DNA from: an uncultured Clostridia bacterium
GTDB taxonomy: Bacteria > Bacillota > Clostridia > Christensenellales > UBA1242
NCBI GenBank assembly: GCA_930990515.1
Contig: CAKNPS010000003.1
Location: forward strand, 122,903-186,902
Direction: 5' to 3'
DNA: 64,000 bases
Position 1 is the stretch's first letter. Each line of letters starts with the position of its first letter. The notes below the pieces were generated by a model. The model was not told where the DNA came from. It saw nothing but the letters and a program-made list of their open reading frames with translations, and did no database searches. A program made the translations under genes and the position numbers. Positions 4,710 through 53,056 of the stretch are shown piece by piece.

Positions 4710-4716
4710 TGACTTT

Positions 4717-5096: not shown

Positions 5097-5117
5097 ATCT
5101 AATTTTAGGGGTGTTTT

Positions 5118-8831: not shown

Positions 8832-8833
8832 TT

Positions 8834-8957: not shown

Positions 8958-9070
8958 AATTAAGACAATTAAATTAAATAGAAAATGGTGCTTTATACAA
9001 ATACTAAAAATGAAAGAGAATTATAAACTTACAAAAGAGAATATATAGAAATTAATTTTAGGGGATTGTT

Positions 9071-12000: not shown

Positions 12001-12601
12001 CGAAGGCGATGTTGACTATGAAGTTAGAAAACCTGCTGTTCTTCGTGTTAAAGATGGCGAAAAGGTAGAACCAGGAACACAACTTACCGCTGGGGCAATC
12101 AACCCATCTGACCTTCTTAGAACTAAAGGTCTTAAAGGACTTGAACAATATCTTCTTTCTGAAGTTATCAAAGTTTATCGTGGACAAGATGTTAAGGTTA
12201 ATGATAAACACGTTGAAATCATCATTCGTCAAATGCTTAAGAAAGTTAAGATTGAAGATGCTGGAGACACAAATCTTCTTACTGGCGAAATTGTTGATAT
12301 TTCAAGATGTGATGAAGAAAATGAAAAGACACTTCGTGAAGGTGGCAGACCTGCAATTGCAAGAAGAATGCTTCTTGGAATTACAAGAGCTGCTCTTATG
12401 ACAGAATCATTCTTATCATCTTCATCATTCCAAGAGACATCAAGAGTTCTTACTGATGCTGCTTTAAAAGGCAAAGTTGATAATCTTGTTGGTATTAAGG
12501 AAAATGTCATCATTGGAAAACTTATTCCTGCTGGAACTGGACTTAAGAAATATCGTTCAGTTGTTCCTGTTAAAGTGGAAAAAGAGGAAGAAGCAATTTA
12601 A
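9071..12601 (+). CDS. rpoC: DNA-directed RNA polymerase subunit beta'
   Basis: 1176-aa ORF with a zinc-finger [23 protein letters not shown], the catalytic NADFDGDQM motif and the conserved C-terminal GKLIPAGTG. Confidence 0.98.
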
Positions 12602-15451: not shown

Positions 15452-15537
15452 TGGTGCAGGTGGAGGGGGTCGAACCCTCATGAAGTCGCCTTCGCGGGAT
15501 TTTGAGTCCCGTGCGTCTGCCATTCCGCCACACCTGC
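15452..15537 (-). tRNA. tRNA-Leu (anticodon CAA), CCA encoded
   Basis: Reverse complement: GCAGGTG TG GCGGAATGGCAGACGC A CGGGA CTCAAAA TCCCG, long variable arm, GAGGG TTCGACC CCCTC CACCTGC A CCA. This is a class II cloverleaf with anticodon loop CU-CAA-AA. Confidence 0.93.
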
Positions 15538-23634: not shown

Positions 23635-23898
23635 ATGGAAAACAAAAGTGAAATCATTGCAAAGTTTAAACAATCTGAGAATGATACAGGTTCTGTTCAA
23701 GTGCAAGTTGCTCTTCTCACTGAAAGAATCAACCACTTAACTGAACACTTAAAGAAAAATCCAAAAGATAACCATTCAAGACGTGGACTTTTGCAAATGG
23801 TTGGTAAAAGAAAAGGTTTCTTGCAATATCTTAAAGATAAAGATATCGAAGCATACAGAAAACTTATCAAAGAATTGAACATTAGAGAAGTTAAATAA
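23635..23898 (+). CDS. rpsO: 30S ribosomal protein S15
   Basis: 87 aa, with [42 protein letters not shown]. Confidence 0.97.
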
Positions 23899-23951
23899 GA
23901 AAAGGGGGAGCGTGTTTTTTTGCTCTCTTTTTTTCAATAATAGGAGTATTT

Positions 23952-26054
23952 ATGAAAACTGAATTATCTAAGAAATTTGAAATTGAAATCGCTGGCAAAA
24001 AAGTTATTTTTGAAACAGGAGCATTATGTGGGCAATCTAACGGCTCTTGTCTTGTTACTTGTGGTGAAACTGTTATTATGGTCAATGTCACAATGAGTGA
24101 AGAACCAAAACCGGGGATTGATTTCTTCCCATTATCTGTCGAATATCAAGAAAAAATGTATTCTGTTGGAAAAATTCCAGGTGGATTTAAGAAAAGAGAA
24201 GGTCGTCCTTCTGATAAGGCAATTCTCGTTTCTCGTCTTATTGATAGACCACTTCGTCCACTTTTCCCAAAAGGATTCTATAATGATGTTGTTGTTGTGG
24301 CAACAGCACTTTCCATTGACCCAGATGTAAGCCCAGAGCCACTTGCAATGCTTGGTTCTTCTTTTGCTCTTTCCATTTCTGACATTCCTTTCCTTGGACC
24401 TACAGGTTCAGTTTTGGTTGGACTTGTTGATGGTAAATTTATTATCAATCCTAACCAAGAAGAAAGAGAAAAAAGCGACCTTCATCTTACTGTTTCTGGA
24501 ACAGAAGAAGCTGTTTTAATGGTGGAAGCAGGTGCAAATGAAGTGCCAGAAGAACAAATTCTTGATGCTATTATGTTTGCACACGAAGAAATTAAGAAAA
24601 TTGTTAACTTCATTAAGGGTGTTAAGGCGGAAATTGGCAAGCCTGTAAATCCTAACATTCCATACTACACAATTCCTGAAGAAATTGACAGTGAAGTAAG
24701 AAAGTTTGCTAGTGAAAAACTTGACTATGCATTAGATACTTTTGTTCGTCACGAACGCCAAGAAAGACAAGATGCTGTTGACAAGGAAACAAAAGAACAT
24801 TTTGCGGAAATTTTCCCAGACAAAGAAAGAGAAATTGGCGATGTTCTCTATAAAATGACAAAGGAAAAGGTTAGAGCAAAAATTTTAGAGAAAGGTATTC
24901 GTCCAGACGGAAGAACCTTAGAGCAAATTCGTCCTATTTGGTGTGAAGTTGGAGTTCTTCCAAGAGTTCACGGAAGTGCTGTGTTTACTCGTGGCGAAAC
25001 ACAAGTTTTGTCTTGCTTGACACTTGGAACAGTCAGTGATGTTCAACAACTTGACGGACTTGACGATGAAGAAGTAAATCGTTATGTTCATCATTATAAT
25101 ATGCCACCTTATGCAACAGGTGAAGCAAAAATGATTAAATCAACAGGCCGTCGTGAAATCGGTCACGGGGCACTTGCAGAAAGGGCATTGGAACCAGTTG
25201 TTCCAAAAGAAGACGTTTTCCCTTATGCTCTAAGAATTGTGAGCGAAGTTTTATCTTCAAATGGTTCTTCTTCAATGGCAAGCGTTTGTGGTTCAACTCT
25301 TGCACTTATGGACGGCGGTGTGCCAATTTCTGCTCCTGTTGCAGGAATTGCTATGGGACTTATCAAAGACGAAAATTCTAAGAAAGTGGCAGTTTTATCT
25401 GATATTCAAGGTCTTGAAGATTTCCTTGGCGATATGGATTTTAAAGTTACAGGAACTGCAAAAGGTGTGACTGCCATTCAAATGGATATTAAGATTAAAG
25501 GAATTGACAAAGCTATTCTTTCTGAAGCATTAGGGAGAGCAAAAATTGGAAGAATGTACATTATGGACAAACTTCTTGCTTGCATTAAAGAACCTAGAAA
25601 AGAAATTTCAAAATATGCTCCTAAAATTATTACTTTCGAAATTGACCCAGAGAAAATTAAAGATGTTATTGGTTCTGGTGGAAAAACAATCAACAAAATC
25701 ATTGCAGAAACTGGTGTTAAGATTGACATTGAAGATGACGGAACCGTTTTCATTGCGTCTGTTGATAGCGAAATGAACGAAAAAGCAAAGAAAATCATTC
25801 TTTCAATTGTGGAAGAAATTGAAGTTGGCGATGTTTATGACGGAAAAGTTACAAGAACAACCGCTTTTGGTGCTTTTGTGGAACTTGGGATGGGAAAAGA
25901 AGGTATGATTCACATCTCTAAACTTTCTTCAAAACGAGTAAACAAAGTGGAAGATGTTGTCAAAGTTGGCGATACTGTCGAAGTTGAAGTTATCAAAATT
26001 GACGACAAAGGAAGAATTGACCTAAAACGCCTTGAAAAGAAAGAAGAAAAATAA
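23952..26054 (+). CDS. pnp: Polyribonucleotide nucleotidyltransferase (PNPase)
   Basis: 700 aa with two RNase PH domains, a KH segment (GSGGKTINKI) and an S1 domain (GDVYDGKVTRTTAFGAFVEL). Canonical rpsO-pnp order. Confidence 0.97.
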   Translation: MKTELSKKFEIEIAGKKVIFETGALCGQSNGSCLVTCGETVIMVNVTMSEEPKPGIDFFPLSVEYQEKMYSVGKIPGGFKKREGRPSDKAILVSRLIDRPLRPLFPKGFYNDVVVVATALSIDPDVSPEPLAMLGSSFALSISDIPFLGPTGSVLVGLVDGKFIINPNQEEREKSDLHLTVSGTEEAVLMVEAGANEVPEEQILDAIMFAHEEIKKIVNFIKGVKAEIGKPVNPNIPYYTIPEEIDSEVRKFASEKLDYALDTFVRHERQERQDAVDKETKEHFAEIFPDKEREIGDVLYKMTKEKVRAKILEKGIRPDGRTLEQIRPIWCEVGVLPRVHGSAVFTRGETQVLSCLTLGTVSDVQQLDGLDDEEVNRYVHHYNMPPYATGEAKMIKSTGRREIGHGALAERALEPVVPKEDVFPYALRIVSEVLSSNGSSSMASVCGSTLALMDGGVPISAPVAGIAMGLIKDENSKKVAVLSDIQGLEDFLGDMDFKVTGTAKGVTAIQMDIKIKGIDKAILSEALGRAKIGRMYIMDKLLACIKEPRKEISKYAPKIITFEIDPEKIKDVIGSGGKTINKIIAETGVKIDIEDDGTVFIASVDSEMNEKAKKIILSIVEEIEVGDVYDGKVTRTTAFGAFVELGMGKEGMIHISKLSSKRVNKVEDVVKVGDTVEVEVIKIDDKGRIDLKRLEKKEEK

Positions 26055-33868: not shown

Positions 33869-33982
33869 ATATTTGCAAGATCATTACAAAAAATGTGTGT
33901 TTTTATTTTATTAATAAAATAAATTTTGTTTTTTATAGAGAATTTGCTTGTAAAAAAATTAAAAAATATATATAATAAAAAT

Positions 33983-36900
33983 ATGAAAAAGTTTATTATC
34001 ACATTTTTTTCAATATTATTAATTGCACTGACATCGGTCGGCGGAGGTTTATTATTGTCGGCTTGTGATAACTCTTCTTACTCAGAAAATATTGATAGTG
34101 GCTCTAGTGACTCCACAAATGAAGATGTGAACACTCCGAGTGATGAAACTCCTACTGATGATCCTAATGGCGAGAATGAAAACTTAGGGAGTGAAGAAAA
34201 TAATGATGAAAACCAAGACGACATTGAAGCACAAAGCGTAAATTTTTCAGTTAGAGTTCAAGCGTATTTGACTACTGGAGAAATTTTATCATACTCAACT
34301 CTTAATAGTAGGGGGATTTATGCTGGTCGCTTTTCTATATATTGGTATGAAGGTGATGGAAAATCTGGACATGGGGATGCAAAAACTTGGGGAAACACTC
34401 CAACAAAAACAGCGGCTTATGGATATTCCATAGGTGCTGGAAATTCAAATTCAACTTATGCAAATGGGCTCGCATATTTTTCATATTCTTATGGAATGGG
34501 TGTGCAACGATATGCAAGGCTCTATAGTTATACTAGTTCACGTTTTACTCGTTGGAGTGTGAGTACAAGTTCTTCATTTGAAAGTTCAAGGCAATCAACG
34601 GGAACGACTTCAACAACTTATCTTTATGGAAGGGGAATAACTTCAACCTCAAAACCAACTTCGTCAGTTGGAACAACTATGTCTGGGACATGGTATGTTA
34701 AGTATAGACAAAATATAACGATAAGTTATAATGCTAATGGCGGAAGTGGTGCTCCAAGTTCGACAACTGCCTATGCTGGAGTTGATGCTACATTGTCAAG
34801 TTCAACACCAACTCGTTCAGGATATATATTTAATGGGTGGCTTTTAAATGGATTACTATATGGCCCAGGAGATGAAATTCCTTATGAAACTTTAGAAGGG
34901 AGTACATCTTATACTGCTTATGCTCAATGGATTCCAAATGAATCATGGACAGATTCTGGAAATTATGCAACTTCGTTTGCTGATGGAAGTGGATCACAAG
35001 AAGACCCATATCGAATTTCAAATGAAAGAGAACTTGCAAGAGTCGCATATCTTGTCAACAGTTCATCATATAATTCTTCTTACGCTTCAGATTATTATCT
35101 TCAAACCACAAATCTTGATATGTCTGATTTTTATTGGGTTCCAATAGGAACATCTTCTTATTCATTTAAAGGTCACTATGATGGTGCAGGTTATACTGTT
35201 TCTGGATTATATACCAAATATAATGAAGATTATCAAGGACTTTTTGGATACATTGAAGGGACTTCGAGTAATCGAGTCGAGATAAAAAATATCGGGATAA
35301 CTAGTTCTCAAGTATTTGGATCTAACTATGTCGGCGGTGTTGTTGGATATGGAAAATATGTAGATATTGAGAATTGTTTTAATTCTGGAAATGTTTTAAA
35401 TACAAATTATAATGTAGGTGGTATTATTGGAGAAGCAAGTTATTATTCTGCTACCACAAATTGTTATAACATGGGACTAATAAGTGGAGATTTTAATGTA
35501 GGTGGTATTATAGGTTATAAAACTAAGTATTCAAATATGTATTATTGTTATAATGTAGGAAACATAATTGGTCGTTCAAATATAGGTGGAATATGTGGTG
35601 GCGTATATGGTAGCCATGGTGATGCCATAAAAAATTGCTTTAATGTTGGTAATGTTTTTGGTTATTCAGATGATTATATAGGTGGAGTTTTAGGTTACGA
35701 TGGTGGCGGTGGCATTAGTGGTGAAGTAGTAAAATGTTATTATGGTGGTGATTGTACTTTAAGTTATGGTATTGGAGGAATTAATGGTTCTGGTTCAAAT
35801 ACAGGAACAACAAGAATTTCAAGATTAAATTCAACAAGTTATGCAAAAAATAATAGTTGGTACACAAATTCTTCCAACTGGACAGGTGGAGCATGGGATT
35901 TTACTTATACATGGACAAGAAGTAGTTCAGTGAATGATGGTTATCCAACATTTAGGAAAATCACTGTAACATACTATTCAAATTTTGGAAACAACACCAC
36001 TTATAGTCAACAATATGTCGCAAGTTCAGTTAGTATTCTTTCATATATGCTTTCTTCAAGAACTGGATATACATTTTCACATTGGAACTCAAATTCAAGT
36101 GGAACTGGGACAACATATACAGTTGGGACAACATATAACCGTTCATCTAATTTGAGTTTGTATGCAATTTGGGATCCAAATGAATATACAAACAGATATC
36201 GCTATCGAATCACAAGTGGAACAGTTACAACATACTCTGACCAGACACGAACTTATGGGCAAAGTTTTACAACACTTTCAACATCGAACATACCAGAATA
36301 TGTTTCAAATGGTTGGAGTTTGTATGGTTGGGGAACAAGCTCATCAACAACGACAAGAAGTTATGGCGTAAGTACAAGTGTAACATCAACAACTTACACA
36401 AATAGCACATCAACTTTATATTGGTATGCGATTTCGTCAAGAACAATAACAATAAATTACAATGCAAATGGCGGATCAAATGCTCCGAGTGCAACAACAG
36501 GGACACAGCGGTGGAATCAATATGGGAATACATATAATATTTCTAGTCTATCAGTAACAAGCAGTGAGCCGACACGAACGGGATATACATTCTTAGGCTG
36601 GTCAACAAGTTCAACAGCGACAACTCCGACTTATGAAGCTGGAGATAGAATAAGTTTTACATATAGTTCTTCTAACAGCAGAACATTGTATGCAGTTTGG
36701 GAAGTAAATCAGTATCAATTTGATTCTTCTGTTTGGGTTGATGGGACAAAATATAGTTCTTCAAATAGTTATATAACTTTTGATGTGTTGGTAGATGGAA
36801 CAAGAGTTTCAACAGGAATAAGTGATTTTTATAAAATGGTAAATTATGGAAGTATTGTTGAATTTACAAACTTTAAAGTTGCCACTGGTTACACTTATTC

Positions 36901-38008
36901 TTCATATTACACAACTCCTACATCAATAGAAACTAGTGATAGTACAAAAAATGATATAAAGATAAATATGCAGGCAAAAACGACATATTTAAATATTGTT
37001 CTTACTGCGAATGTTTACACAATAACTCTTAATAAACAAAGTGGAAGTGGTGGAACAAGCACAATATATTTGAAATATAATACGGGTTGGTATTCAAATT
37101 CAGGTGCGACAACGAGCATATCAACAGTGGTACTTCCAACTAGAGCAGGATTTACATTCCAAGGGTATTACACGGGAACTAATGGCTCAGGCACGCAAGT
37201 TATAAATTCAAGTGGGCAAATAATTTCAGGAAGAACAACAATAACAACAAGTAATATTTCTTTGCATGCTTATTGGACTGCAAAAAATCCAGCAAGGTAT
37301 GATAGTGAAAAAGGCTATTGGTATGTTGAAATGGGATATTATCCACAAACTAGAGCAACTGAGACAGAGATAAATGGAATAACAAACACAAATGGAGCAG
37401 TATATACCATAAATGGCACTGATGTTACATCAAAAATAGGAGCAAATAACATTGAGTATTGCCAGTATAACGGAGTATGGTATAAGGTTGAGCCAGTGAG
37501 ATATGTGTTATCTGGAAATTATTCGTCAGGCTATGGAACAGAAAGTGGAAATGTTGTGGCTGTGACGGAACAAATTGTGTTTGCAAGTGCGTGGAGTAGC
37601 ACAAAACTAAGTTTAGGCGATGGCTATACATCATCAACACTAAGAACAAACATATCAGACTTTATAAGTGACACTCAAATGAATATAGATTATACTGGAG
37701 CAAGGTCATACACAATAAAGAACTTCAGAAATGTGAATGGAGCAAGTGCTGACACAACATTATCTGTAGATATAATTGCATCAAATGAAAGTGAAATTGA
37801 GAGTGTTTTTGGAGATTTAAGTGCCGAGTTTTCCGATTTAGTATCTGACATATTAGGAAATAATTTAATGTATTGGACACGAGATGTTGGTTCTAATTTA
37901 AACACTGCAGAATGTATCACAAGGTTAGGCTCGCCAGCACAACCAATAATGCAAAAATTATATGGCGTAAGACTTACTGCTAATGTTTCAATTTTTGGGT
38001 GTGTATAG
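33983..38008 (+). CDS. Very large surface lipoprotein with Listeria-Bacteroides (Flg_new) repeats and GLUG motifs
   Basis: I chose the start at MKKFIITFFSILLIALTSVGGGLLLSAC, a signal peptide with lipobox LSAC. It has several units of the type YNANGGSGAPS...TRSGYIFNGW and TRTGYTFLGWST. GLUG-like units include VGGVVGYGKYVDIENCFNSGNV and VGGIIGEASYY. No SD; a -10 box lies just upstream of the ATG. Confidence 0.8.
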   Translation: MKKFIITFFSILLIALTSVGGGLLLSACDNSSYSENIDSGSSDSTNEDVNTPSDETPTDDPNGENENLGSEENNDENQDDIEAQSVNFSVRVQAYLTTGEILSYSTLNSRGIYAGRFSIYWYEGDGKSGHGDAKTWGNTPTKTAAYGYSIGAGNSNSTYANGLAYFSYSYGMGVQRYARLYSYTSSRFTRWSVSTSSSFESSRQSTGTTSTTYLYGRGITSTSKPTSSVGTTMSGTWYVKYRQNITISYNANGGSGAPSSTTAYAGVDATLSSSTPTRSGYIFNGWLLNGLLYGPGDEIPYETLEGSTSYTAYAQWIPNESWTDSGNYATSFADGSGSQEDPYRISNERELARVAYLVNSSSYNSSYASDYYLQTTNLDMSDFYWVPIGTSSYSFKGHYDGAGYTVSGLYTKYNEDYQGLFGYIEGTSSNRVEIKNIGITSSQVFGSNYVGGVVGYGKYVDIENCFNSGNVLNTNYNVGGIIGEASYYSATTNCYNMGLISGDFNVGGIIGYKTKYSNMYYCYNVGNIIGRSNIGGICGGVYGSHGDAIKNCFNVGNVFGYSDDYIGGVLGYDGGGGISGEVVKCYYGGDCTLSYGIGGINGSGSNTGTTRISRLNSTSYAKNNSWYTNSSNWTGGAWDFTYTWTRSSSVNDGYPTFRKITVTYYSNFGNNTTYSQQYVASSVSILSYMLSSRTGYTFSHWNSNSSGTGTTYTVGTTYNRSSNLSLYAIWDPNEYTNRYRYRITSGTVTTYSDQTRTYGQSFTTLSTSNIPEYVSNGWSLYGWGTSSSTTTRSYGVSTSVTSTTYTNSTSTLYWYAISSRTITINYNANGGSNAPSATTGTQRWNQYGNTYNISSLSVTSSEPTRTGYTFLGWSTSSTATTPTYEAGDRISFTYSSSNSRTLYAVWEVNQYQFDSSVWVDGTKYSSSNSYITFDVLVDGTRVSTGISDFYKMVNYGSIVEFTNFKVATGYTYSSYYTTPTSIETSDSTKNDIKINMQAKTTYLNIVLTANVYTITLNKQSGSGGTSTIYLKYNTGWYSNSGATTSISTVVLPTRAGFTFQGYYTGTNGSGTQVINSSGQIISGRTTITTSNISLHAYWTAKNPARYDSEKGYWYVEMGYYPQTRATETEINGITNTNGAVYTINGTDVTSKIGANNIEYCQYNGVWYKVEPVRYVLSGNYSSGYGTESGNVVAVTEQIVFASAWSSTKLSLGDGYTSSTLRTNISDFISDTQMNIDYTGARSYTIKNFRNVNGASADTTLSVDIIASNESEIESVFGDLSAEFSDLVSDILGNNLMYWTRDVGSNLNTAECITRLGSPAQPIMQKLYGVRLTANVSIFGCV

Positions 38009-41769: not shown

Positions 41770-42270
41770 TTATAGGTCTTTTTCGCAATTTTTATGAGAA
41801 AGTTCTCTTTCAAGGACTAAAAATTTAAACGATGGATTGGCAGTTTTTTCATAAACTGTTTCAGCACGACTTAAATCTATTTTTGGAAAAAATGTATCGC
41901 CGTTTTTAATTTCAGTGTTGATTAAAGTTAGATAAAACTTTTTGGCATAAGGGAGAGCTTGTCTATATATGCTTTCGCCACCACAAACAAAAATTTCTTC
42001 TTTTGAGTTTTTATTTTCTTCTAAAAATTCTTGAAGATTTTGAATGGTGTGACAATTTTTTTCTTCAATTTTGAGAGAATTGCTAACCAAAATTGTTTTT
42101 CTATTTGGAAGAATTTTTCCAATTGAAAGAAAAGTGTTTTTGCCCATGACAATGGTGTGGTTTAATGTTCGTTCTTTAAACCATTTTAAGTCTTCTTTGA
42201 TATGCCAAGGCAATTTTCCATCTTTACCTATGCAAAAATTTTTATCAAATGCCACAATAATTGAAATCAT
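41770..42270 (-). CDS. folA: Dihydrofolate reductase
   Basis: Start at MISIIVAFDKNFCIGKDGKLPWHIKEDLKWFKERT...VMGKNTF...GGESIY. The longer ORF in the track runs through a terminator and the tRNA gene. A TTGACA-17-TACCAT promoter lies at 42321-42293 on the minus strand. Confidence 0.9.
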   Translation of the reverse strand: MISIIVAFDKNFCIGKDGKLPWHIKEDLKWFKERTLNHTIVMGKNTFLSIGKILPNRKTILVSNSLKIEEKNCHTIQNLQEFLEENKNSKEEIFVCGGESIYRQALPYAKKFYLTLINTEIKNGDTFFPKIDLSRAETVYEKTANPSFKFLVLERELSHKNCEKDL

Positions 42271-42321
42271 TTTTTTATCCTTTAATGTAAAAATGGTACC
42301 ATACATAAAAATATTTGTCAA

Positions 42322-42348
42322 TAAAAAATAGCGACTAATTATCGCTAT
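42322..42348 (-). terminator. Terminator after tRNA-Leu(AAG)
   Basis: On the minus strand: tagcga taattag tcgcta, followed by tttttt. Confidence 0.6.
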
Positions 42349-42359
42349 TACTTTATTGT

Positions 42360-42441
42360 TGGTGCGAGCGGTGGGACTTGAACCCACACTCTTTCGAACA
42401 TGCCCCTTAAACATGCGCGTCTGCCATTCCGCCACGCTCGC
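42360..42441 (-). tRNA. tRNA-Leu with anticodon AAG (A34), CCA encoded
   Basis: Reverse complement: GCGAGCG TG GCGGAATGGCAGACGC G CATGT TTAAGGG GCATG TTCGAAAGAGT GTGGG TTCAAGT CCCAC CGCTCGC A CCA. The D-arm is identical to that of the CAA isoacceptor, which fixes the register. The anticodon loop is UU-AAG-GG with G37. Confidence 0.8.
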
Positions 42442-42660: not shown

Positions 42661-45600
42661 ATGAGAAATAATATATTAAATAAAAAATTATTTTTTGTTT
42701 GCATAATTTTGTTTGCATTTGTTTTTTGCCTTGTTTCTTTGTTTTCTTTTGACTTTTCATTAGCAAAAGCAGAAAATTCTGAAACAAACACTGTTGGCTC
42801 TTACGAAGATTTAGAAAGCGGACTATTTCGTTTATTTAACCAATTTGGCGTTACTCAAGATGGTGAAAAGATTGTTATTGATAAAGAAAGTGTTGAAGTT
42901 GAAAACGAGGAAGAATATGTTTCTTCTTCGGCTTTAAATTTAGATACCGGAATCTCTACTTTTTCTATGGAAAATAATACTCAAGAGTTGATTTCATTAT
43001 CTTCACTTGAAGAAAAATATGATATTACAGAAGAAGATGATGCTTATGTTTTGTCTAAAAGCGATTATACAAACCGTATTATTGTTTCTTATGATGGCGA
43101 ACTTGAGCCCTATAATACAGAATACTATGCTGAAGGGTTAGGTTATCATATTTATCAATATGAAACTCAAGAAGATACGAGAGAAGCATTTGAATATTAT
43201 TCCAACATTTCTTATGTGGAAAGTGTAGAATATGATTATGTTGTCACAGTTGATACAATTTCAGATCACACCATTTTTTCATCATCAAGCTACTTATCTT
43301 GGGGTGCAGATGTTACGGGTGTTGCTGATTATATGGCTTATCTTGACTATTTATTTACTGACGAAGAATTGAACACGGTTTATGTTCCTGTTTTGGATAG
43401 TGGGGTGGACACTAATCATAACCTTTTAAAGGATAGAATAGATTTTGAACATTCGAAAGATTTTACTGGCACAGGCTCAAGTGAGAATGGGAAATACGCT
43501 TTTGAAGATGATAATGGACACGGCACTCATACTGCGGGCATTATTGCAGACCAAACAAAAGATAATGTTAAAATTATTTCTTTGAAAGTTTTAAAAGCGA
43601 ATGGTAAGGGGTCAGTAGCGAACATTTTGCTTGCATTTGAATATATTCAAAATTTAAATGACTCAGAGTATATGCGAGAAGAATTTGAAGAAGATGCTCT
43701 AGGAATTCGTGTTATTAATATGAGTTTAGGACTTGAAGATGAAGATGGTAATATCGTTCATAGTCCTAATTTGGAAAATAAAGTCAGAGAAATTTATAGA
43801 GATAACACTTCAACTGGGCAAAATGGTATTTTATCTGTTGTTGCTGCGGGGAATAGTGGAAGAAGCACTATGACTTGTTCGCCTGCAAATGTTTCTGAAG
43901 CTATTGTTGTTTCTGCTCTATCTTCTCGTAATAATGATGAAGAAGAAAAAACTGAAGTTGAAGATTTATTTTTTGCTTCATATTCAAATTATGGCTCTAC
44001 TGTTGACTTTTCCGCTCCTGGGACATGGGTAGTAAGTTCTTATGTAAGAGTTATTAATGGAATTGTGATTGATGATCCAAATTTTTGCTGTGAACAAAGC
44101 GGAACATCAATGGCTGCACCACATGTTACTGCTTGTATTGCACTTATTCTTTCTAGTCCAACTCTTGCTGAGATGTCTAATGCTGAGATAATTTCAAACC
44201 TTAAGGCAAATTCGATTGACCTTGGAGATGAAGGTTTTGACCAATATTATGGAAATGGCTTAATTAATATTTCAAACTTAGGAATTATAACCAAAGGTGT
44301 TGTTGATTTTAGCGTTTCAGAATTACATCACACTAAAGAATTTGAAGTGGAACTTTCTTATGATTTAACTCTTAATGGTGGAGAATCTTACACAATTTAT
44401 TATACAACTGATGGAACAGAGCCTGGGATAAATTCTCAAGTTTATTCTGCTCCTATAACAATTTCAGAAACCACTCAAATTCGTGCGATTGCGTATGCAA
44501 CTTCACAAATTGAGGAAAATAATCTAATAAAGAGTAAAATATCAACAATAACATATTACCTTAATAATATTGACCTAGACAGCAATTTTGAAATAAATGA
44601 ATTAACGGGCACAATTGTTAAATATAACGGAAATCTTACAACTTTAAATATTCAAGATGTCATTTCTAATACAAGAATAACAAGAATTGGAGAAAGTGCT
44701 TTTTCAAATTCTAATGTGGAAAATGTCATTTTACCAAATTCTTGCTTATACATTGATAATTATGCCTTTTATAACGCTACAAATTTAGAAAGTATAACTT
44801 TGAACAATGTTTACTATATTAGAAACTATGCTTTTGCAAATTGTATAAATTTAAAAGAATTATATTTGCCTTATGCTATGTCAATCGGAACTGGGGCATT
44901 TAATAATGTGAAACTGGACAGTATGACTTTGGGTGGTCAGGTTTCTACTTTTGGAGAAATGAGCAATTTTAGTGTTGGAACTTTGGAATGTTATACTGGT
45001 ATGGGCTTAGATGAAACTTATAATCTTTATGCAGATACAATTATTTCCATAAATTTACATGTTGTAAATGTCACTGGCACAACAAAATTGATTGGCAAAA
45101 GTGGAGACGAAATTGTTTTACAATATGATGTGTATGGAAAATTTTCAAGTTCATCTTATAGGTCAGATGACGAAAATGCTTCAATTTATGTTGATAATAG
45201 CGAATTTGAAACAAAAAATGTTCGACATATAACATTCACATTTTCTGGTCTTAGTGTAGATAGCGATCAGCCATATTCATATTATTTGAATTTCTATGAT
45301 ATTTTTGGCAACCAAATTCAAGACAATATTGAGATTACAATTTTACCTTCAGTAACTCAAGAATATGCTCTTAACATTGAAGGCGAAAATTTTGAGATTT
45401 ATGTAAATGGTCAGTTAGTAAATAGCGGTTTTGTGCTTTATGCTGGTATAAGCGACTATGAAATCAAAATTGAAGCAGAAAAAGGTTATGGGCTTTCTTC
45501 AATTAATGTTAATGGAGAAACTCAAACAGAGACATATTTTACCCTTCCAACAATAAATGGCGATGTTACTATTAATTGTGTGTCTTATGAAATTCCAAAT

Positions 45601-46218
45601 TTTTCTATTCAATTTAGTCATTCTGAAAATGTAGATATTTTAGTTAATGAAACACCTATTGAAGACACTATAACAGTTGACAGAAATGGGAACCTTACTT
45701 TCAAAGTTCAAGTGAAAGAAGGTTATAGAATAAGTCAAGTGTCTATTAATGGAGAAATTGTAACTCTAGATGAAAATAACTCTTTCACTCTTACAAATGT
45801 TTTAGAAAATTTTAATGTTGAAATTGTTGATAAACAAATAACTTTCAATTTATATATTTCCTATGGTAACGGTGGAGATGTTTCTGCAGCAAATATCGAA
45901 CAAGTATTTTACGGAGCTAATAAAGTTTTAGACATTATTCCAAATGAAGGATATGAAGTTGATAGTGTGTTTGTGAATGGGGAAGAAGTTGAAGTTATAA
46001 ATAACCAGCTTGACCTTCAAAATATTACAAGTGATATGGAAATTGTTGTATCATTTAGACCAATAAACACTGGTCTGACAGAAAGTGAACTTGCTTTAAT
46101 TATTTTATTCTCAATACTTATTGGGGCGACATTTATTTGGGGTATTACTGAATTAATTTTAAAGATTAGAAGAGATAAGAAATATAATTATAAAAAAAAT
46201 TATTCTAAACATTTTTAA
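42661..46218 (+). CDS. Cell-surface subtilisin-like (S8) serine protease with BspA-type leucine-rich repeats and a C-terminal TM anchor
   Basis: Signal peptide, then the catalytic triad contexts VLDSGVDTNH, HGTHTAGIIA and GTSMAAPHVTA. A YTIYYTTDGTEPG module follows, then LRR units (ITRIGESAFSNSNVENVILPNS..IDNYAFYNATNLESITL), repeated Ig-like modules of about 90 aa, and a terminal TM helix with a KIRRDKKYNYKK tail. No LPXTG. Confidence 0.85.
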   Translation: MRNNILNKKLFFVCIILFAFVFCLVSLFSFDFSLAKAENSETNTVGSYEDLESGLFRLFNQFGVTQDGEKIVIDKESVEVENEEEYVSSSALNLDTGISTFSMENNTQELISLSSLEEKYDITEEDDAYVLSKSDYTNRIIVSYDGELEPYNTEYYAEGLGYHIYQYETQEDTREAFEYYSNISYVESVEYDYVVTVDTISDHTIFSSSSYLSWGADVTGVADYMAYLDYLFTDEELNTVYVPVLDSGVDTNHNLLKDRIDFEHSKDFTGTGSSENGKYAFEDDNGHGTHTAGIIADQTKDNVKIISLKVLKANGKGSVANILLAFEYIQNLNDSEYMREEFEEDALGIRVINMSLGLEDEDGNIVHSPNLENKVREIYRDNTSTGQNGILSVVAAGNSGRSTMTCSPANVSEAIVVSALSSRNNDEEEKTEVEDLFFASYSNYGSTVDFSAPGTWVVSSYVRVINGIVIDDPNFCCEQSGTSMAAPHVTACIALILSSPTLAEMSNAEIISNLKANSIDLGDEGFDQYYGNGLINISNLGIITKGVVDFSVSELHHTKEFEVELSYDLTLNGGESYTIYYTTDGTEPGINSQVYSAPITISETTQIRAIAYATSQIEENNLIKSKISTITYYLNNIDLDSNFEINELTGTIVKYNGNLTTLNIQDVISNTRITRIGESAFSNSNVENVILPNSCLYIDNYAFYNATNLESITLNNVYYIRNYAFANCINLKELYLPYAMSIGTGAFNNVKLDSMTLGGQVSTFGEMSNFSVGTLECYTGMGLDETYNLYADTIISINLHVVNVTGTTKLIGKSGDEIVLQYDVYGKFSSSSYRSDDENASIYVDNSEFETKNVRHITFTFSGLSVDSDQPYSYYLNFYDIFGNQIQDNIEITILPSVTQEYALNIEGENFEIYVNGQLVNSGFVLYAGISDYEIKIEAEKGYGLSSINVNGETQTETYFTLPTINGDVTINCVSYEIPNFSIQFSHSENVDILVNETPIEDTITVDRNGNLTFKVQVKEGYRISQVSINGEIVTLDENNSFTLTNVLENFNVEIVDKQITFNLYISYGNGGDVSAANIEQVFYGANKVLDIIPNEGYEVDSVFVNGEEVEVINNQLDLQNITSDMEIVVSFRPINTGLTESELALIILFSILIGATFIWGITELILKIRRDKKYNYKKNYSKHF

Positions 46219-46868: not shown

Positions 46869-46900
46869 AAAAAAGCACATAAATTTGTGTGCTTTTTTTT
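46867..46900. terminator. Bidirectional terminator
   Basis: aaaagcacat aaattt gtgtgctttt, with an A-run and a T-run. Confidence 0.75.
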
Positions 46901-47502
46901 TAAACTTCAGTTTTAACAAAATATCTTGCATCGTGTAAACATAATGGGCAAACAAAATCTTCTGGCAATGGGTCGCTTTCGTAGACATAACCACAAACAG
47001 AACAAATATAAACAACCTTTTTCTGTGGAATGGTGTTTTTTGGTTTTATGTTTGCTTGGTAGTAAGCATAAGTGATTGAAGGAATTTCGTTCAAAACCAC
47101 TTCTTCGGTAACATCTGCTAAAAATTCAATATGTGTTCCTAAATCACGAACTTCCACAACTTCTGCAGAAATGTATGAGTTTGTTCCTTGTGTGATATAT
47201 GGTATTTCATTTTCAGCGATTTCGTAATTTGAAAAATTCTCAAACTTATTCGTGTTCTTACCACTTGCAAAACCAAATCTTTTTATTAAATCAAAGTCTG
47301 CTTTTTCATTTAAAATGGAAATATTAAATTTCTTTGTTTTTAAAATTTGCTCGGTTGTAAAATTGTTTTTATTTACAGCAATCATAATTCTGTTTGGGGT
47401 TGAAGTGACTTGTGAAAGGGCATTAATAACACAGCCATTTATTTTTTCAGTCTTTGCTGTTAATATGTATAAGCCGTAAGAAATATTAAACATTGCATTC
47501 AT
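46900..47502 (-). CDS. Flavin reductase-like domain fused to rubredoxin (high-molecular-weight rubredoxin type)
   Basis: N-terminal FMN-binding split-barrel-like region (YGLYILTAK..INGCVINALSQVTS). C-terminal rubredoxin with YICSVCGYVY...FVCPLCLH (two CxxC pairs). Confidence 0.8.
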   Translation of the reverse strand: MNAMFNISYGLYILTAKTEKINGCVINALSQVTSTPNRIMIAVNKNNFTTEQILKTKKFNISILNEKADFDLIKRFGFASGKNTNKFENFSNYEIAENEIPYITQGTNSYISAEVVEVRDLGTHIEFLADVTEEVVLNEIPSITYAYYQANIKPKNTIPQKKVVYICSVCGYVYESDPLPEDFVCPLCLHDARYFVKTEV

Positions 47503-47723
47503 AAGTTTCTCCTTTTAAAATATATTATCATAAATAAAGTTTTTGGTCAAATATTTTATGAATTAAAAAGATAAGGAAAATGGACTTATAATTAATAATT
47601 TAAGAGAAGGTGTTATATTTTAAATTATCTTGTTTTGAAATTTTCTAAAGATTATAATTATTTTAAGTTTTTAATTTTTATTATTAAAAAAGTATGCTAG
47701 AATCTAAAGACACACAACGTGTG

Positions 47724-47752
47724 TTGCATTTTTGGCTAAATTATGATATAAT
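47724..47752 (+). promoter_or_regulatory. Promoter of the large non-coding RNA
   Basis: TTGCAT (47724-47729), 17-nt spacer, TGaTATAAT (hexamer 47747-47752). A second possible extended -10 (TGcTAGAAT) lies near 47694-47702. Confidence 0.6.
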
Positions 47753-47758
47753 ATATAT

Positions 47759-48308
47759 TGAAGGTGCAGTATTCTAGTCATTTTCCATATTTTAGGAAGA
47801 TGAAGTAATGGCATCGACGGGCATATCTGTGAAGTTTCTGGTGCTTGCCTTGGTTGCCCAAACTGGGGTAGGTGCTGGAAGTTAAGATTTTTGGGCGAGT
47901 TATAACGGCATATAACATCCGTCCCAATTTTCGTGGAGACCTAGCAGGGTGAGAAATCACTCTATAGGTATGAACCTGCATTGCGGTAAAAGTCGTGTGC
48001 AGCGTAGCCTAGCCTGAGTGGACATTTTGGGATTAAGTTTAAACGCGAATTCTTTCTTGGCCATGAGAGTTTACGCCTGCTTATGAAATTATGTTTGCAA
48101 AACGGAAGAATAATTTATGGAAAATGTTAAGGAAAACTTCTAGACTGTTGCGTTTGCAGGCAGAGTAAGGATTATAGTGTGTTCTAAGTGGCGATTCGGT
48201 GTTATGTTCTGCTTAAAAGGAAACTGCTCTAAAGCGGTGACGCGGAGTGCGGAAATGGGAAATCCGACCGAACCTATGACACAAGGTTTACTTACTTTGT
48301 CACCTTCA
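47759..48308 (+). ncRNA. Large (about 550 nt) structured non-coding RNA of uncertain class (OLE-like by context; ROOL-like by size)
   Basis: No plausible ORF on either strand, and visibly GC-richer than its flanks. The 5' end tgaaggtg (47759-47766), at the predicted TSS, pairs perfectly with caccttca (48301-48308) immediately before the terminator. Internal hairpins include gttata acggca tataac (47899-47916) and gcg GTGA cgc (48234-48243). Confidence 0.75.
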
Positions 48309-48339
48309 TATAGAGCCTAAAAAGGCTCTATATTTTTTT
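48308..48339 (+). terminator. Rho-independent terminator of the large ncRNA
   Basis: atatagagcc taaaaa ggctctatat, followed by ttttttt. Confidence 0.85.
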
Positions 48340-48537
48340 GCCTAAAAATTTATTAAATTGTTTGTAAAATTTTATAAATTACTATCAAATATGCATGGAT
48401 ATATTTTATATATCCTACATTTTTGTTTTATTTATCGTTTTTATATAGTGTAATAAAAAACTAATTTAATCAATTTAGAACTCCATTTTGAATTATTTTG
48501 ATATTGTGCTATAATAGTTGTTATTAAGGAGATTTAA

Positions 48538-49302
48538 ATGGAAAAATCTAAAAAGAAAGGGAAGAAAAAACAATCTAAATTTGCACTATGGTTCAAGTGG
48601 CCACTTATTGTTTTGGTAGTGTCTTTCTCTCTTTCAATGGCTTTTGGAATTTTGAGTGAAATCGCTCTTACAAATGCCAATATCATTGTGGCGATTGTGG
48701 TTGTTCTAGTCTTTTTGGTTATTGCAATTATCACTGATATGATTGGAGTGGCGATTGCCGCTTGTGATACAACCCCTTTTAGGGCTATGGCAGCAAAGAA
48801 AATTCGCGGAGCAAAAGAAGCAATCATATTGGTCAAAAATGCCGACAGAGTTTCCAGCATTATCGCAGACATTTTAGGTGATGTATGCAGTATTTTGAGT
48901 GGTGCTGCTGGAACAACAATCGCGGTTGCACTTATTTCTGCAAGTATGTCATCAATTGTGCAAGTTATCATATCTTCTTTGGTTTCCGCTGTTATTGCTG
49001 CTCTCATCATTTCCGGCAAAGCATTTATGAAGAGATATTCTTTAATTCATTGTGAAAAGATTATTCTAATTTTAGGAAAATTTATTAGCATTTTTCATAT
49101 TTCCAAAAAATCTAAAAAGAAAGTTGATAAACAATATGCTCAAATTAAAGATAAAGAAAAAAGTGATGCGGAAGTTGTAGAAAATAACAAAAACCCCGTT
49201 GAAAATCAAGAAGAACAAGAAAAAACCGTTGAAATTGTCGAAAATAATGATACTATTAAAGATAAACAAGAAGAAAACGATAATCAAAATGAAGAGAAAT
49301 GA
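48538..49302 (+). CDS. Four-TM membrane protein with a basic N-terminus and an acidic low-complexity tail (DUF21/CNNM-TM-like; possible OapA analogue)
   Basis: SD aaggag and its own TGcTATAAT promoter. Four helices, with a basic loop TPFRAMAAKKIRGAKEAIILVKNADRVSS between TM2 and TM3. The C-terminal 80 aa are K/E/N-rich. Confidence 0.6.
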   Translation: MEKSKKKGKKKQSKFALWFKWPLIVLVVSFSLSMAFGILSEIALTNANIIVAIVVVLVFLVIAIITDMIGVAIAACDTTPFRAMAAKKIRGAKEAIILVKNADRVSSIIADILGDVCSILSGAAGTTIAVALISASMSSIVQVIISSLVSAVIAALIISGKAFMKRYSLIHCEKIILILGKFISIFHISKKSKKKVDKQYAQIKDKEKSDAEVVENNKNPVENQEEQEKTVEIVENNDTIKDKQEENDNQNEEK

Positions 49303-51238: not shown

Positions 51239-53056
51239 ATGATTACTGACATAGAATTAAAAAATAAATGGTTTGAATTTTTTGAAAGTAAGGGATTTAA
51301 AAGGATTGCAGGTTATTCAATAATTCCTGAAAACGACCCTACTGTTCTTTTCACAACTGCTGGAATGCATCCGCTTGTTCCATATCTTCTTGGCGAGCCA
51401 CACCCAGAAGGAAATAAAATTTGTGATATTCAAAGGTGTATTAGAACAACTGATATTGATGAAGTAGGAGATAATTCACACTTAACATCTTTTGAAATGC
51501 TTGGAAATTGGTTTTTGGGTGAATGTGACAAGGAAAAAATGATTGAATATTCTTATGAATTTTTGACAAGTCCAAAATATTTAAATCTGCCAAAAGAAAG
51601 ACTTGCCACAACTGTTTTTGCAGGTGACGAAGTTGCTCCAAAAGATGAAGTTGCATATAACGCTTGGAAAAAATGTGGGATTAAAGATGTTTTCTATCTA
51701 GGAAAAGATAACAACTGGTGGGCTCTTGGTGGCGGAGTTGGACCATGTGGACCTGATACTGAAATGTTCTTTGATACTGGCAAACCAAAATGCTCAGAAA
51801 ATTGTTCTCCTGCCTGTGATTGCGGAAAATATGTTGAAATTTGGAACGATGTTTTTATGCAATATGTTGTTGAAAAAGAAGGCGAAAAAGTTAAACCGCT
51901 TAAAAAACCAAACATCGACACTGGAATGGGCTTAGAGAGAACCGTCATGGTTCTTAATGGACTTAAATCAATTTATGAATGTGGAATTTTGAAAGATGTT
52001 ATTGATTTTATTTCATCAAAAGCAGAAAAAAGATATGATGAAGATGAAAAATCCACTCGTTCATACCGCATTATTGCTGACCATTTACGTTCATCAATGT
52101 TTATTTTAGGAGATGAAAGGGGTGTTGTTCCTTCTAATGTTGGGCAAGGGTATATCTTAAGAAGATTTATTCGCCGTGCTGTTAATTGTGCAAGAAATAT
52201 TGGTTTTGATACCAAGTATTTTGAAAATATAATTGACCTATTTGTTGATAGACATGGGGAAGATTATGCCGATATTAAGAGAAATCGCGAATTTATTAAA
52301 AGCGAACTTAATAAAGAAGTAGAGAAATTCTCAAAGGCTCTTGAAGAAGGGCATAAAGAGTTTGAAAAGGTAATTCTTGGAATTGAAAAACACAAACAAT
52401 TTGCTGCTCTTAAGGGAGAGGTTGTTCCAAATATTATTTCTGGCAAGGCTTGTTTTAGACTTTATGACACATTTGGTTTTCCTTTTGAACTTACAAAAGA
52501 ACTTGCTTTAGAACGCGGATATCAAGTTGATGAAGAGGGATACAAAAAAGCCTTTGAAGAACATCAAGAAAAAAGCAGAACGGCATCAGCAGGGACTTTC
52601 AAAGGTGGACTTGCTGACACTTCAATGGCAAGTGCACATCTTCACACTGCGACACATCTTCTTATGGCAGGACTCAGAAAAATGTTTGGAAATCAAGTTC
52701 AACAAAAAGGTTCAAACATCACTCCTGAAAGACTTAGACTTGATTTCAATGTTGACCATAAATTGACACAAGAAGAACTTAAGGAATTAGAAAATTTTGT
52801 TAACGATGCCATAAAGAAAGCAATTCCAGTTACTTATGAAGAAATGTCAATTAGTGATGCCAAGAAAAGTGGGGCTGTTGGCGTTTTTGAAAACAAATAT
52901 GGCGAAGTTGTAAAAGTTTATACTATTGGTGATGTAAGTAAAGAAATTTGTGGTGGTCCACACGCTAAAAATACAGCTGATTTACATCACTTAAAGATTG
53001 TTAAAGAAGAAAGTTCTTCTGCAGGAATTAGAAGAATCAAGGCAATTTTGGACTAA
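51239..53056 (+). CDS. alaS: Alanine--tRNA ligase, unusually short (605 aa; no C-Ala domain)
   Basis: Class II AlaRS catalytic core (FTTAGMHPLVPYLLG, QRCIRTTDIDEVGD, FEMLGNWF, IDTGMGLERT). Editing-site motifs HTATHLL (HxxxH) and CGGPHAKNT (CxxxH). The ORF ends about 30 aa after the latter. Confidence 0.8.
   Translation: MITDIELKNKWFEFFESKGFKRIAGYSIIPENDPTVLFTTAGMHPLVPYLLGEPHPEGNKICDIQRCIRTTDIDEVGDNSHLTSFEMLGNWFLGECDKEKMIEYSYEFLTSPKYLNLPKERLATTVFAGDEVAPKDEVAYNAWKKCGIKDVFYLGKDNNWWALGGGVGPCGPDTEMFFDTGKPKCSENCSPACDCGKYVEIWNDVFMQYVVEKEGEKVKPLKKPNIDTGMGLERTVMVLNGLKSIYECGILKDVIDFISSKAEKRYDEDEKSTRSYRIIADHLRSSMFILGDERGVVPSNVGQGYILRRFIRRAVNCARNIGFDTKYFENIIDLFVDRHGEDYADIKRNREFIKSELNKEVEKFSKALEEGHKEFEKVILGIEKHKQFAALKGEVVPNIISGKACFRLYDTFGFPFELTKELALERGYQVDEEGYKKAFEEHQEKSRTASAGTFKGGLADTSMASAHLHTATHLLMAGLRKMFGNQVQQKGSNITPERLRLDFNVDHKLTQEELKELENFVNDAIKKAIPVTYEEMSISDAKKSGAVGVFENKYGEVVKVYTIGDVSKEICGGPHAKNTADLHHLKIVKEESSSAGIRRIKAILD

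Follow-up and report, generated by a model that had tools for sequence, protein, structure and literature searches.

The stretch at positions 47724-49302 of the window (the whole 64-kb piece of DNA analysed here) raises the question of whether a long, apparently non-coding and folded RNA, followed on the same strand by a membrane-protein gene, belongs to a known family of giant bacterial RNAs or stands for a class of its own. Among the non-coding RNAs of bacteria whose biochemical function is still unknown, OLE (ornate, large, extremophilic) RNAs rank with the largest and best conserved. The original prediction for this locus had described a discrete RNA, folded and about 550 nt long, that matched OLE and ROOL in size class, had called it an orphan, and had held a new large ornate RNA class in reserve. 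It can be stated with little room for doubt that the stretch is an ole-oapA pair, encoding the OLE ribonucleoprotein of a low-GC, uncultured member of the gut Clostridia. The RNA is a member of the known OLE family, an assignment that no finding speaks against, and it has the shortened form on record from uncultured gut Clostridia. The features of the locus are collected in Table 1.

Table 1. Coordinates of the features of the ole-oapA locus, given as positions in the window.
Feature	Position	Strand	Description
ole promoter, sigma-70-type	47724..47752	+	-35 TTGCAT 47724-47729, 17-nt spacer, extended -10 TGaTATAAT 47744-47752
ole gene	47759..48339	+	about 580 nt from inferred start to end of terminator T-run; RF01071 match and covariation
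End-closing helix P1, 5' strand	47759..47766	+	tgaaggtg, pairs with 48301-48308
Conserved 5' block GCAGUAUUCUAG	47767..47777	+	long-range helix with CUAGACUG at 48139-48146
Variable-sequence helix, 5' strand	47780..47794	+	pairs with about 48110-48124
Long hairpin P5/P5.1 (named by position)	47835..47881	+	loop UGCCCA, invariant in 66-sequence alignment
Hairpin P6/P6.1 (named by position)	47891..47927	+	loop AAYGGCAUA, invariant
P7 hairpin	47940..47968	+	GAAA cap; 15 nt shorter than Rfam consensus
Long P9 arm	48012..48105	+	palindromic loop GGCC at 48059-48062
P12.2 / P14 / P15 junction	48195..48272	+	P13 site reduced to about 5 nt, GUUAU 48201-48205
End-closing helix P1, 3' strand	48301..48308	+	caccttca, exact reverse complement of 47759-47766
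ole intrinsic terminator	48308..48339	+	stem 48308-48333, 11 bp, 4-nt loop, then T7
oapA promoter-like site (putative)	48488..48515	+	TTGAAT, 16-nt spacer, TGcTATAAT; 10/12 bases match, TG upstream of -10
oapA ribosome-binding site AAGGAG (putative)	48527..48532	+	read in sequence
oapA	48538..49302	+	254-aa membrane protein, four transmembrane (TM) helices

Identity of the RNA

When the window was scanned with cmscan against the covariance-model library of Rfam 15, the OLE model (RF01071; gathering score 50 bits) gave an end-to-end match on the forward strand at 47745-48322, scoring 351.4 bits (E = 1.3e-99) and covering model positions 1-616 of 616 without truncation. The match settles the choice that the predicted size class had left between OLE and ROOL, and the word 'orphan' does not apply to the RNA. 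OLE is also the sole large-RNA family matched among those that the original prediction had listed for comparison, as ROOL, GOLLD, raiA, RNase P, and tmRNA have no matches at gathering score anywhere in the 64-kb window; the original reading that RNase P and tmRNA signatures were lacking agrees with the silence of both Rfam models. None of the other large-RNA families in Rfam 15 reaches its own gathering score in the ole region.

Homologues support the fold as well as the name. In an alignment of the window RNA with 65 homologues (66 sequences), RNAalifold predicts 132 pairs, 95 of which carry compensatory changes. Many columns of this alignment are invariant, and the conserved OLE blocks are unchanged across the window RNA and all 65 homologues, some of which are full-length OLEs with scores of 470-485 bits. 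The related loci (80 of 80) come from Bacillota, mostly from metagenome-assembled genomes (MAGs) of uncultured gut Clostridia and Bacilli. Because a standard Rfam scan labels the RNA, and because both the shortened form and its host group were described in 2024, the locus brings no new kind of evidence for the OLE family; its practical value is a clean annotation of the ole boundaries, a conserved promoter, a covarying closing helix, a terminator, and oapA.

The ole transcription unit

The region had been described as poor in ORFs and richer in GC than its surroundings, and both the ORF list and the base composition agree: there are no ORFs of at least 50 aa on the forward strand between 47503 and 48537, and GC is 0.41-0.45 within the ole region vs 0.20-0.28 in the flanks. 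On the reverse strand, the single ORF of at least 50 aa in the ole region (67 aa, 47778-47981) was rejected as a real gene, since it overlaps covarying helices and conserved RNA blocks.

The promoter of the original prediction, with transcription starting near 47759, can be read in the sequence, and the start is placed at about 47759-47760. Upstream sequence was readable in 16 related loci, and in most of them the arrangement TTGCAT-17-TGnTATAAT keeps its distance from the start of the RNA (a few carry a variant hexamer); this conservation of both arrangement and distance argues that the promoter is not a chance match. It escapes a consensus promoter scanner, since only 3 of the 6 bases in its -35 hexamer agree with the consensus.

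Between the outer ends of helix P1, the RNA measures 550 nt. The pairing of its two ends, originally noted as perfect, is matched by evolution as well as by exact complementarity, as the P1 columns (3-10 with 717-724) covary in the 66-sequence alignment, with examples such as A-U 46 / U-A 14, G-C 56 / A-U 10, and C-G 24 / U-A 19 / U-G 17. This end-closing helix is unmarked in the Rfam consensus structure. The strong intrinsic terminator predicted directly past the helix was likewise found, and an equivalent hairpin followed by a T-run occurs in eight of the closest relatives (L001, L002, L005, L007, L008, L011, L013, and L014). With its own promoter and terminator, both read from sequence and its conservation, ole seems to be transcribed independently.

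Architecture of the RNA and loss of P13

The long-range helix formed by GCAGUAUUCUAG and CUAGACUG corresponds to RNAalifold columns 12-22 paired with 506-513, of which columns 18/510 covary (U-A 50 / C-G 12). Its palindromic CUAG motif probably corresponds to a region known from published work to bind OapA; the OapA sites have been mapped to palindromes near P2 and P4a (PMC12265935). The helix that follows, which probably corresponds to P3 of the published model, keeps its pairing in the 66 OLEs without conservation of sequence: it forms a 13-bp duplex of -12.0 kcal/mol in the window RNA, and across the 66 OLEs the mean is -10.0 kcal/mol vs -5.2 kcal/mol for shuffled partners, with a median of 12 bp.

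The loops associated with dimerisation are also retained. UGCC in the P5.1 loop (47855-47858) is complementary to GGCA in the P6.1 loop (47907-47910), which agrees with the intermolecular kissing loops of OLE dimers (PMC12265935), and in cryo-EM models of OLE the dimer is also held together at the symmetrical P9 loop (PMC12265935). The dimerisation-loop bases of P5.1, P6.1, and P9, the helices being named by position, vary little or not at all among the aligned RNAs.

In the cmscan alignment, a 15-position deletion in P7 falls at model positions 213-227, and a 19-position model hairpin is matched by 1 nt of the window RNA. The latter hairpin is P13, located directly 3' of the P12.2 5' strand and carrying the GNRA loop that is bound by OapB (PMC7936274). 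The window RNA lacks P13, the docking site of OapB, as do about 42 of the 65 relatives in the alignment, and 23 more distant ones have it; with the hairpin missing, the junction that is four-way in the Halalkalibacterium halodurans OLE has only three arms in the window RNA. P8 and P9 each fall 2 nt short of the Rfam consensus, a marginal difference vs the clear shortening of P7 and P13.

Compared with full-length OLE (RF01071; H. halodurans, Clostridium acetobutylicum, and C. botulinum), the window RNA shares the closing helix, the long-range CUAG helix, P4 to P12, P14, P15, the P5.1/P6.1 complementarity, the P9 GGCC loop, and the neighbouring oapA. It differs in lacking the P13 hairpin and the OapB site, a mark of full-length OLE rather than of the entire family, in its shortened P7, and in the promoter and terminator that ole has of its own. 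The missing P13 together with the short P7 leads to its assignment to OLE variant 1, a form known from gut Clostridia of reduced genome and lacking the P13 nucleotides of the OapB site (Fernando and Breaker, 2024, mSphere; PMC11332333). As judged from its sequence, the window RNA fits this form. Variant 1 was delimited by an untruncated Infernal bit score of 310-390 (PMC11332333), and the 351.4 bits of the window OLE fall within that band, a fit that is only approximate because the published limits refer to a covariance model built by the authors and the score here is that of the Rfam model. The shorter P7, the loss of the OapB-site nucleotides with the other conserved blocks kept, the uncultured low-GC gut Bacillota hosts, and the downstream oapA are likewise shared with variant 1, from which nothing substantive sets the window RNA apart, P8 and P9 being shortened only marginally.

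The downstream gene and its product

The original prediction of a downstream, same-strand protein with four TM helices and a basic inter-helix loop holds in each part. A hydropathy scan of the 254-aa product finds four hydrophobic segments (residues ~22-40, 47-73, 108-134, and 140-158), and an AlphaFold2 model, of moderate confidence (mean pLDDT 68; core 70-87), places helices at residues 14-45, 49-75, 102-133, and 139-170. The loop between the second and third helices (residues 76-104) contains seven K/R residues; across 61 homologues K88 never varies, and conservation of R82, R90, and K93 is 90% or higher. A DxxxD motif is formed by D111-I-L-G-D115; D111, D115, and also D67 are invariant in the same 61 homologues. 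This motif has been described as distinctive of OapA, with CNNM domains lacking it (PMC11332333).

At default thresholds, Pfam and NCBIfam return nothing meaningful for the protein, and there is no match to CBS or CorC domains. The search against DUF21/CNNM models upheld a resemblance, at 12.8 bits (PF01595, E 0.094), which lies under the Pfam cutoff of 28.4; the original label 'DUF21-like' is therefore a fair one in the sense that OapA is a distant, sub-threshold relative of CNNM/DUF21. Structural comparison points the same way, as the six best PDB fold matches of the model in Foldseek, with probabilities of 0.97-1.0 and E values of 8e-3 to 0.6, are all TM domains of CNNM/CorB/CorC proteins (7M1T, 7M1U, 7CFF, and 7CFG), and 7M1U (MtCorB) is also the published top fold match of the H. 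halodurans OapA (PMC11332333). The predicted fold of the TM domain is thus shared with the CNNM/CorB/CorC/MpfA Mg2+ transporters (PF01595, formerly DUF21); the window protein differs from them in its score under the Pfam cutoff, the lack of CBS/CorC domains, the presence of four rather than three TM helices, and the DxxxD motif. It is CNNM-like in predicted fold, yet no member of PF01595 by the Pfam criterion.

Since Pfam and NCBIfam hold no curated OapA model, membership was judged from the individual features of the protein and from its genomic association. The position immediately 3' of ole, the four TM helices, the invariant DxxxD, the basic loop, the CNNM-like predicted fold, and the PF01595 similarity that stays below threshold are all shared with OapA; a Lys-rich N-terminus and a C-terminal tail of ~65 residues, disordered, acidic, of low complexity, and variable among relatives, are points of difference. 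On these sequence features, the 254-aa protein is OapA, the known membrane partner of OLE, as the proposal of an oapA-like gene next to the RNA had anticipated.

The two genes are also associated in other genomes. Of 74 loci in which 700 nt or more of sequence precede the OapA homologue, 67 have OLE directly upstream of it, and the other seven have no OLE within 4 kb upstream, so that the link between the protein family and ole is not a strict one. At least one of the seven (L068) is an additional copy, its MAG having an ole-oapA pair (L024) as well.

Alternatives to a functional OLE RNA

It is very unlikely that the RNA is a decaying, non-functional OLE remnant, eroded in a reduced genome, even though its 351 bits are well under the 470-485 bits of full-length OLEs, its OapB site is gone, and its P7 is shortened. 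About 42 related genomes share the P13-less architecture despite their sequence divergence, and in these relatives compensatory changes preserve the helices and the conserved blocks are invariant; promoter and terminator are conserved, an intact and conserved oapA lies downstream, and at least 22 metagenome contigs carry an identical OapA protein with the gene order unchanged. The recurrent architecture, the compensatory changes, and the conservation of promoter, terminator, and oapA therefore indicate purifying selection and not decay.

Still less probable is that the RNA does not stand alone but serves the membrane-protein gene in cis, as a regulator or a long structured 5' leader. The RNA does lie directly upstream of this ORF on the same strand, and in several relatives the spacer between the two is merely 30-70 nt, such that read-through of the terminator could yield a joint transcript. 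In the window, however, the closing helix is followed at once by the strong intrinsic terminator and then by an AT-rich spacer of about 200 nt with its own ribosome-binding site and promoter-like site, the latter 150-180 nt past ole, and the H. halodurans OLE works in trans as a stable, abundant component of a ribonucleoprotein (PMC9723947; PMC12265935). A new large ornate RNA class, or a giant RNA of the ROOL, GOLLD, or raiA type that resembles OLE merely in size and context, is just as improbable as the leader: a length of about 550-580 nt and the lack of any signature visible by eye in the original reading are outweighed by the match to all 616 OLE model positions, which rules out the new class that had been held in reserve, by the lack of any other Rfam 15 family at gathering score in the region, and by the OLE blocks held invariant with full-length OLEs. 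ROOL and GOLLD resemble OLE in being large, ornate non-coding RNAs of bacteria that assemble into homo-oligomers and whose function is unknown, but they have no sequence or structure match to the window RNA and occur in other genomic contexts.

A proposed OLE ribonucleoprotein

With the RNA taken as a functional OLE, a model of its particle may be drawn by analogy with the OLE RNAs of H. halodurans and Clostridium. The RNA would fold into two domains and form homodimers, with the P5.1/P6.1 kissing loops and the palindromic P9 loop, the sequences of which are all found in the window, as the likely contacts. Dimers of the CNNM-like membrane protein OapA would bind the RNA cooperatively, and the RNA would be held at, or possibly through, the cell membrane, where the particle may help the cell against cold, short-chain alcohols, excess Mg2+, and poor carbon sources.

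The composition of the particle may be simpler here. Within the 64-kb window, which is a fragment of the genome, there are no small ORFs resembling OapB (KOW) or OapC (L7Ae); going by the lost RNA site and the literature, in which variant 1 goes with genomes that lack oapB and often oapC, oapB is presumably missing from the genome, and the particle of this locus would work without OapB. It may be that the P13-less OLE RNAs of reduced-genome gut Clostridia, with their own promoter and terminator and an adjacent oapA, form a minimal two-component particle of RNA and OapA that dispenses with OapB, a proposal for which the chances seem evenly balanced. If true, the core function of OLE would be separable from accessory proteins that are essential in H. 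halodurans, and structural work on domain 2 would gain a simpler object. The idea of a minimal particle has already been raised by Fernando and Breaker (2024; PMC11332333), and even if true it would thus be a refinement rather than a discovery. The locus provides a further example of the OapB docking hairpin being dispensable in a whole clade.

Identity of the RNA

The large RNA encoded upstream of oapA (see Table) belongs to a family that has already been described. When the entire window was scanned against Rfam 15 at gathering thresholds (cmscan), OLE (RF01071) was matched at 47745-48322 of the plus strand with 351.4 bits (gathering score 50; E 1.3e-99), over model positions 1-616 of 616 and without truncation. 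OLE was the sole large-RNA match; ROOL, GOLLD, raiA, RNase P, and tmRNA gave no match at these thresholds in the whole window, and the remaining matches were two tRNAs only. Because the match is full length and to the only large-RNA family found, the RNA is OLE RNA and not an orphan. The original prediction thus erred in calling it an orphan, while its leading guess, OLE, and its dismissal of RNase P and tmRNA were correct. The RNA family, its structural variant, and the partner gene are all previously known.

Boundaries of the Transcription Unit

From the flavin-reductase-like gene to the ORF at 48538, the plus strand contains no ORF of 50 aa or more and the minus strand a single ORF of 67 aa, and the GC content within 47800-48250 is 0.41-0.45 versus 0.20-0.28 in both flanks, as expected of the ORF-poor, comparatively GC-rich region originally described. 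The ole promoter, read in the sequence, was unlisted by a consensus scanner because TTGCAT shares only three positions with TTGACA. In most of 16 relatives compared, the 55 nt 5′ of the RNA contain TTGCAT (or TTGCTT, TTGAAT, TTGACA), then a spacer of approximately 17 nt and TGnTATAAT; in these loci the -10 element ends 6-9 nt ahead of the point where the closing helix begins. The proposed promoter thus keeps its position among relatives, and a transcription start near 47759 is well supported by these sequence comparisons. A short perfect palindrome, ACACAC-AAC-GTGTGT (47709-47725), which the scanner also flagged as terminator-like, lies against the -35 hexamer and partly overlaps it. The upstream regions of the closest relatives do not preserve it, so it is possibly an operator specific to this strain, or else a coincidence.

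The predicted intrinsic terminator was likewise found, and a TAGAGCC...GGCTCTA hairpin and T-run follow the closing helix in the eight closest relatives. The ole-oapA spacer in the window is AT-rich and approximately 200 nt long. In several relatives it is just 30-70 nt, and ole and oapA may therefore be co-transcribed by read-through.

Table. Features of the ole-oapA region (window coordinates)
Feature	Position	Strand	Description
flavin-reductase-like gene	46900-47502	minus	oriented divergently to the ole region
ole promoter	47724-47729; 47744-47752	plus	TTGCAT, 17-nt spacer, TGaTATAAT
ole	47759-48339	plus	OLE RNA gene
end-closing helix (P1)	47759-47766 with 48301-48308	plus	tgaaggtg with caccttca, exact reverse complement
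long-range helix	47767-47777 with 48139-48146	plus	GCAGUAUUCUAG with CUAGACUG; covaries
variable helix	47780-47794 with about 48110-48124	plus	13 bp in the window
ole terminator	48308-48339	plus	11-bp hairpin, 4-nt loop, then T7; directly 3′ of the closing helix
promoter-like site 5′ of oapA	48488-48515	plus	TTGAAT-16-TGcTATAAT; 10/12 bases match, TG upstream of -10
oapA ribosome-binding site		plus	AAGGAG ahead of ATG at 48538
oapA	48538-49302	plus	254 aa

Relatives and Covariation

Related loci were fetched by their downstream protein from a genome collection in which each species is represented once. All 80 derive from Bacillota, nearly all being metagenome-assembled genomes (MAGs) of uncultured gut Clostridia or Bacilli with labels such as Catabacter, Christensenella, and Candidatus Onthoplasma; protein identity reaches 72-84% in the best cases. 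Searching with the window RNA alone as query, nhmmer located an OLE homologue immediately 5′ of the protein match in 67 of 74 loci whose upstream sequence extends for 700 nt or more, and truncated copies at two contig ends besides. Seven loci (L017, L042, L056, L068, L070, L077, and L078) truly have no OLE within 4 kb upstream of the OapA homologue, in agreement with Rfam. One of these, L068, shares a MAG with L024, which has an ole-oapA locus; at least some of the unlinked loci are therefore second copies of the OapA homologue. OLE RNAs of close relatives score 357-389 bits with the Rfam model; those of more remote relatives, a Tissierellaceae MAG and Guopingia tenuis, are full length and score 470-485 bits.

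Alignment of the window RNA with 65 relatives and folding with RNAalifold gave 132 pairs, of which 95 show at least one compensatory double change. The end-closing helix, an element of the original prediction whose positions are unpaired in the Rfam consensus structure, is a genuine covarying helix: its columns in the 66 sequences include G-C 42/A-U 12, A-U 50/G-C 9, A-U 46/U-A 14, G-C 56/A-U 10, and C-G 24/U-A 19/U-G 17. The variable helix is unconserved in sequence yet kept in all 66 (median 12 bp), with a mean duplex energy of -10.0 versus -5.2 kcal/mol with shuffled partners; by position it is probably P3.

Anatomy and Variant Assignment

Every conserved OLE block is seen in the cmscan alignment of the window RNA, which departs from the Rfam consensus at two places, P7 and P13. 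The hairpin assigned to P7 is 15 nt shorter than the consensus and capped by GAAA, and a 19-position model hairpin directly after the P12.2 5′ strand is reduced to one nucleotide. The hairpin at that place is P13, whose bulged stem and GNRA loop form the primary OapB docking site; in the OapB-OLE crystal structure it meets P12.2, P14, and P15 in a four-way junction (PMC7936274). In the window its place is taken by about five nucleotides, GUUAU (48201-48205), and a three-way junction remains. P13 is present in 23 more distant sequences of the alignment and absent from the window RNA and about 42 relatives.

Variant 1 OLE RNAs (Fernando and Breaker, 2024; PMC11332333) are marked by bit scores of 310-390 and by shortened P7-P9 stems, and in many of them the P13 nucleotides of the OapB site are missing; the variant is commonest in TANB77, an uncultured gut clade with reduced genomes whose members are also largely without OapB and OapC (PMC11332333). 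Whereas full-length OLE retains P13 and a longer P7, the window RNA shares with variant 1 the loss of P13, the short P7, and the bit-score band, its 351 bits having been obtained with the Rfam model and the band with the authors' own. The structure is exactly what variant 1 describes.

The Downstream Protein

At the usual thresholds, neither Pfam nor NCBIfam assigns the 254-aa product to a family. Since both lack an OapA model, the published features of OapA (PMC12265935, PMC11332333) were examined one by one. A hydropathy scan detected four hydrophobic segments (22-40, 47-73, 108-134, and 140-158), in agreement with the long helices of an AlphaFold2 model built with 61 homologues (mean pLDDT 68, core 70-87). 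The DxxxD motif is D111-ILG-D115, both aspartates being invariant among the 61 homologues, and seven K/R residues lie in the loop joining helices 2 and 3, with K88 invariant and R82, R90, and K93 at least 90% conserved. The Lys-rich N-terminus and a disordered acidic tail of approximately 65 residues vary among relatives. The four helices and the basic loop bear out the original prediction; with the DxxxD motif, the CNNM-like fold described below, and the association with OLE in 67/74 loci, they identify the gene as oapA.

The protein had also been called DUF21-like, which is apt for its fold. The six best Foldseek matches in the PDB are CNNM/CorB/CorC transmembrane domains (7M1T, 7M1U, 7CFF, and 7CFG; probability 0.97-1.0, E 8e-3 to 0.6), lower matches being noise, and 7M1U is also the reported top match for the predicted Halalkalibacterium halodurans OapA (PMC11332333). 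The term does not extend to family membership: Pfam CNNM (PF01595) reached 12.8 bits at a relaxed E-value limit against a cutoff of 28.4, and the protein has no CBS or CorC domains. Many OapA homologues carry a precomputed PF01595 match.

Proposed Assembly of the Particle

The results presented here concern the family membership of RNA and protein, the transcription-unit boundaries, and the structural variant; the mechanism is carried over from the literature. OLE is bound cooperatively by OapA dimers, which carry it to the membrane, OLE homodimers make contact through an A-rich P4 loop, P5.1-P6.1 kissing loops, and a palindromic P9 loop, and recent cryo-EM models suggest a possible passage of part of the RNA through the bilayer; H. 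halodurans without the particle is sensitive to cold, short-chain alcohols, Mg2+, and some carbon sources (PMC12265935, PMC9723947, PMC10898510). By analogy, the window RNA would be recruited to the membrane through cooperative binding of OapA dimers. The window RNA keeps complementary loops (UGCC, 47855-47858; GGCA, 47907-47910) and a GGCC loop (48059-48062), from which it is reasonable to infer that dimerization is retained. OapB presumably has no part in this particle because P13 is gone.

In a subset of relatives in the alignment of OLE homologues, the P9 loop is AGUACA/GUAC or GCGC, not GGCC (e.g., loci L025, L039, L043, L044, L050, L057, and L073; L012, L032, L038, L045, and L060). The loop sequence thus shifts while self-complementarity stays, as would be expected of a homodimer kissing loop. 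The L024 homologue (2811-3467) is about 60 nt longer than the others, an insertion at the P9 tip supplanting the usual GGCC palindromic loop.

Host and Neighboring Genes

An identical OapA protein occurs on at least 22 metagenome contigs in the same gene order: flavin reductase, a gap of approximately 1 kb with no called gene (the place of ole), oapA, a glycosyltransferase, and a YgjV-family membrane protein. The host is thus an uncultured bacterium that recurs in communities of the gut type. Alanine-tRNA ligase (51239-53056, plus; NCBIfam PRK01584, 822 bits) is a short form of 605 aa without the C-terminal part of the canonical enzyme of approximately 870 aa, in keeping with a reduced genome. 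The two tRNA genes, at 15455-15537 (minus, 83 nt) and 42363-42441 (minus, 79 nt), have long variable arms, and an ORF overlapping the latter (41770-42435, minus) is probably spurious. Several ORFs are very large, including those of 1176-1553 aa at 48-12601 and 33926-38008; another, just upstream of the ole-oapA region (42661-46218, plus), carries a subtilase S8 domain together with BspA-type leucine-rich repeats and Fn3-associated domains, so its product is probably a protease that is secreted or exposed on the surface. At 23635-26054 (plus), the gene for ribosomal protein S15 precedes a 700-aa ORF in the usual position of polynucleotide phosphorylase, an enzyme considered a candidate OLE partner (PMC12265935).
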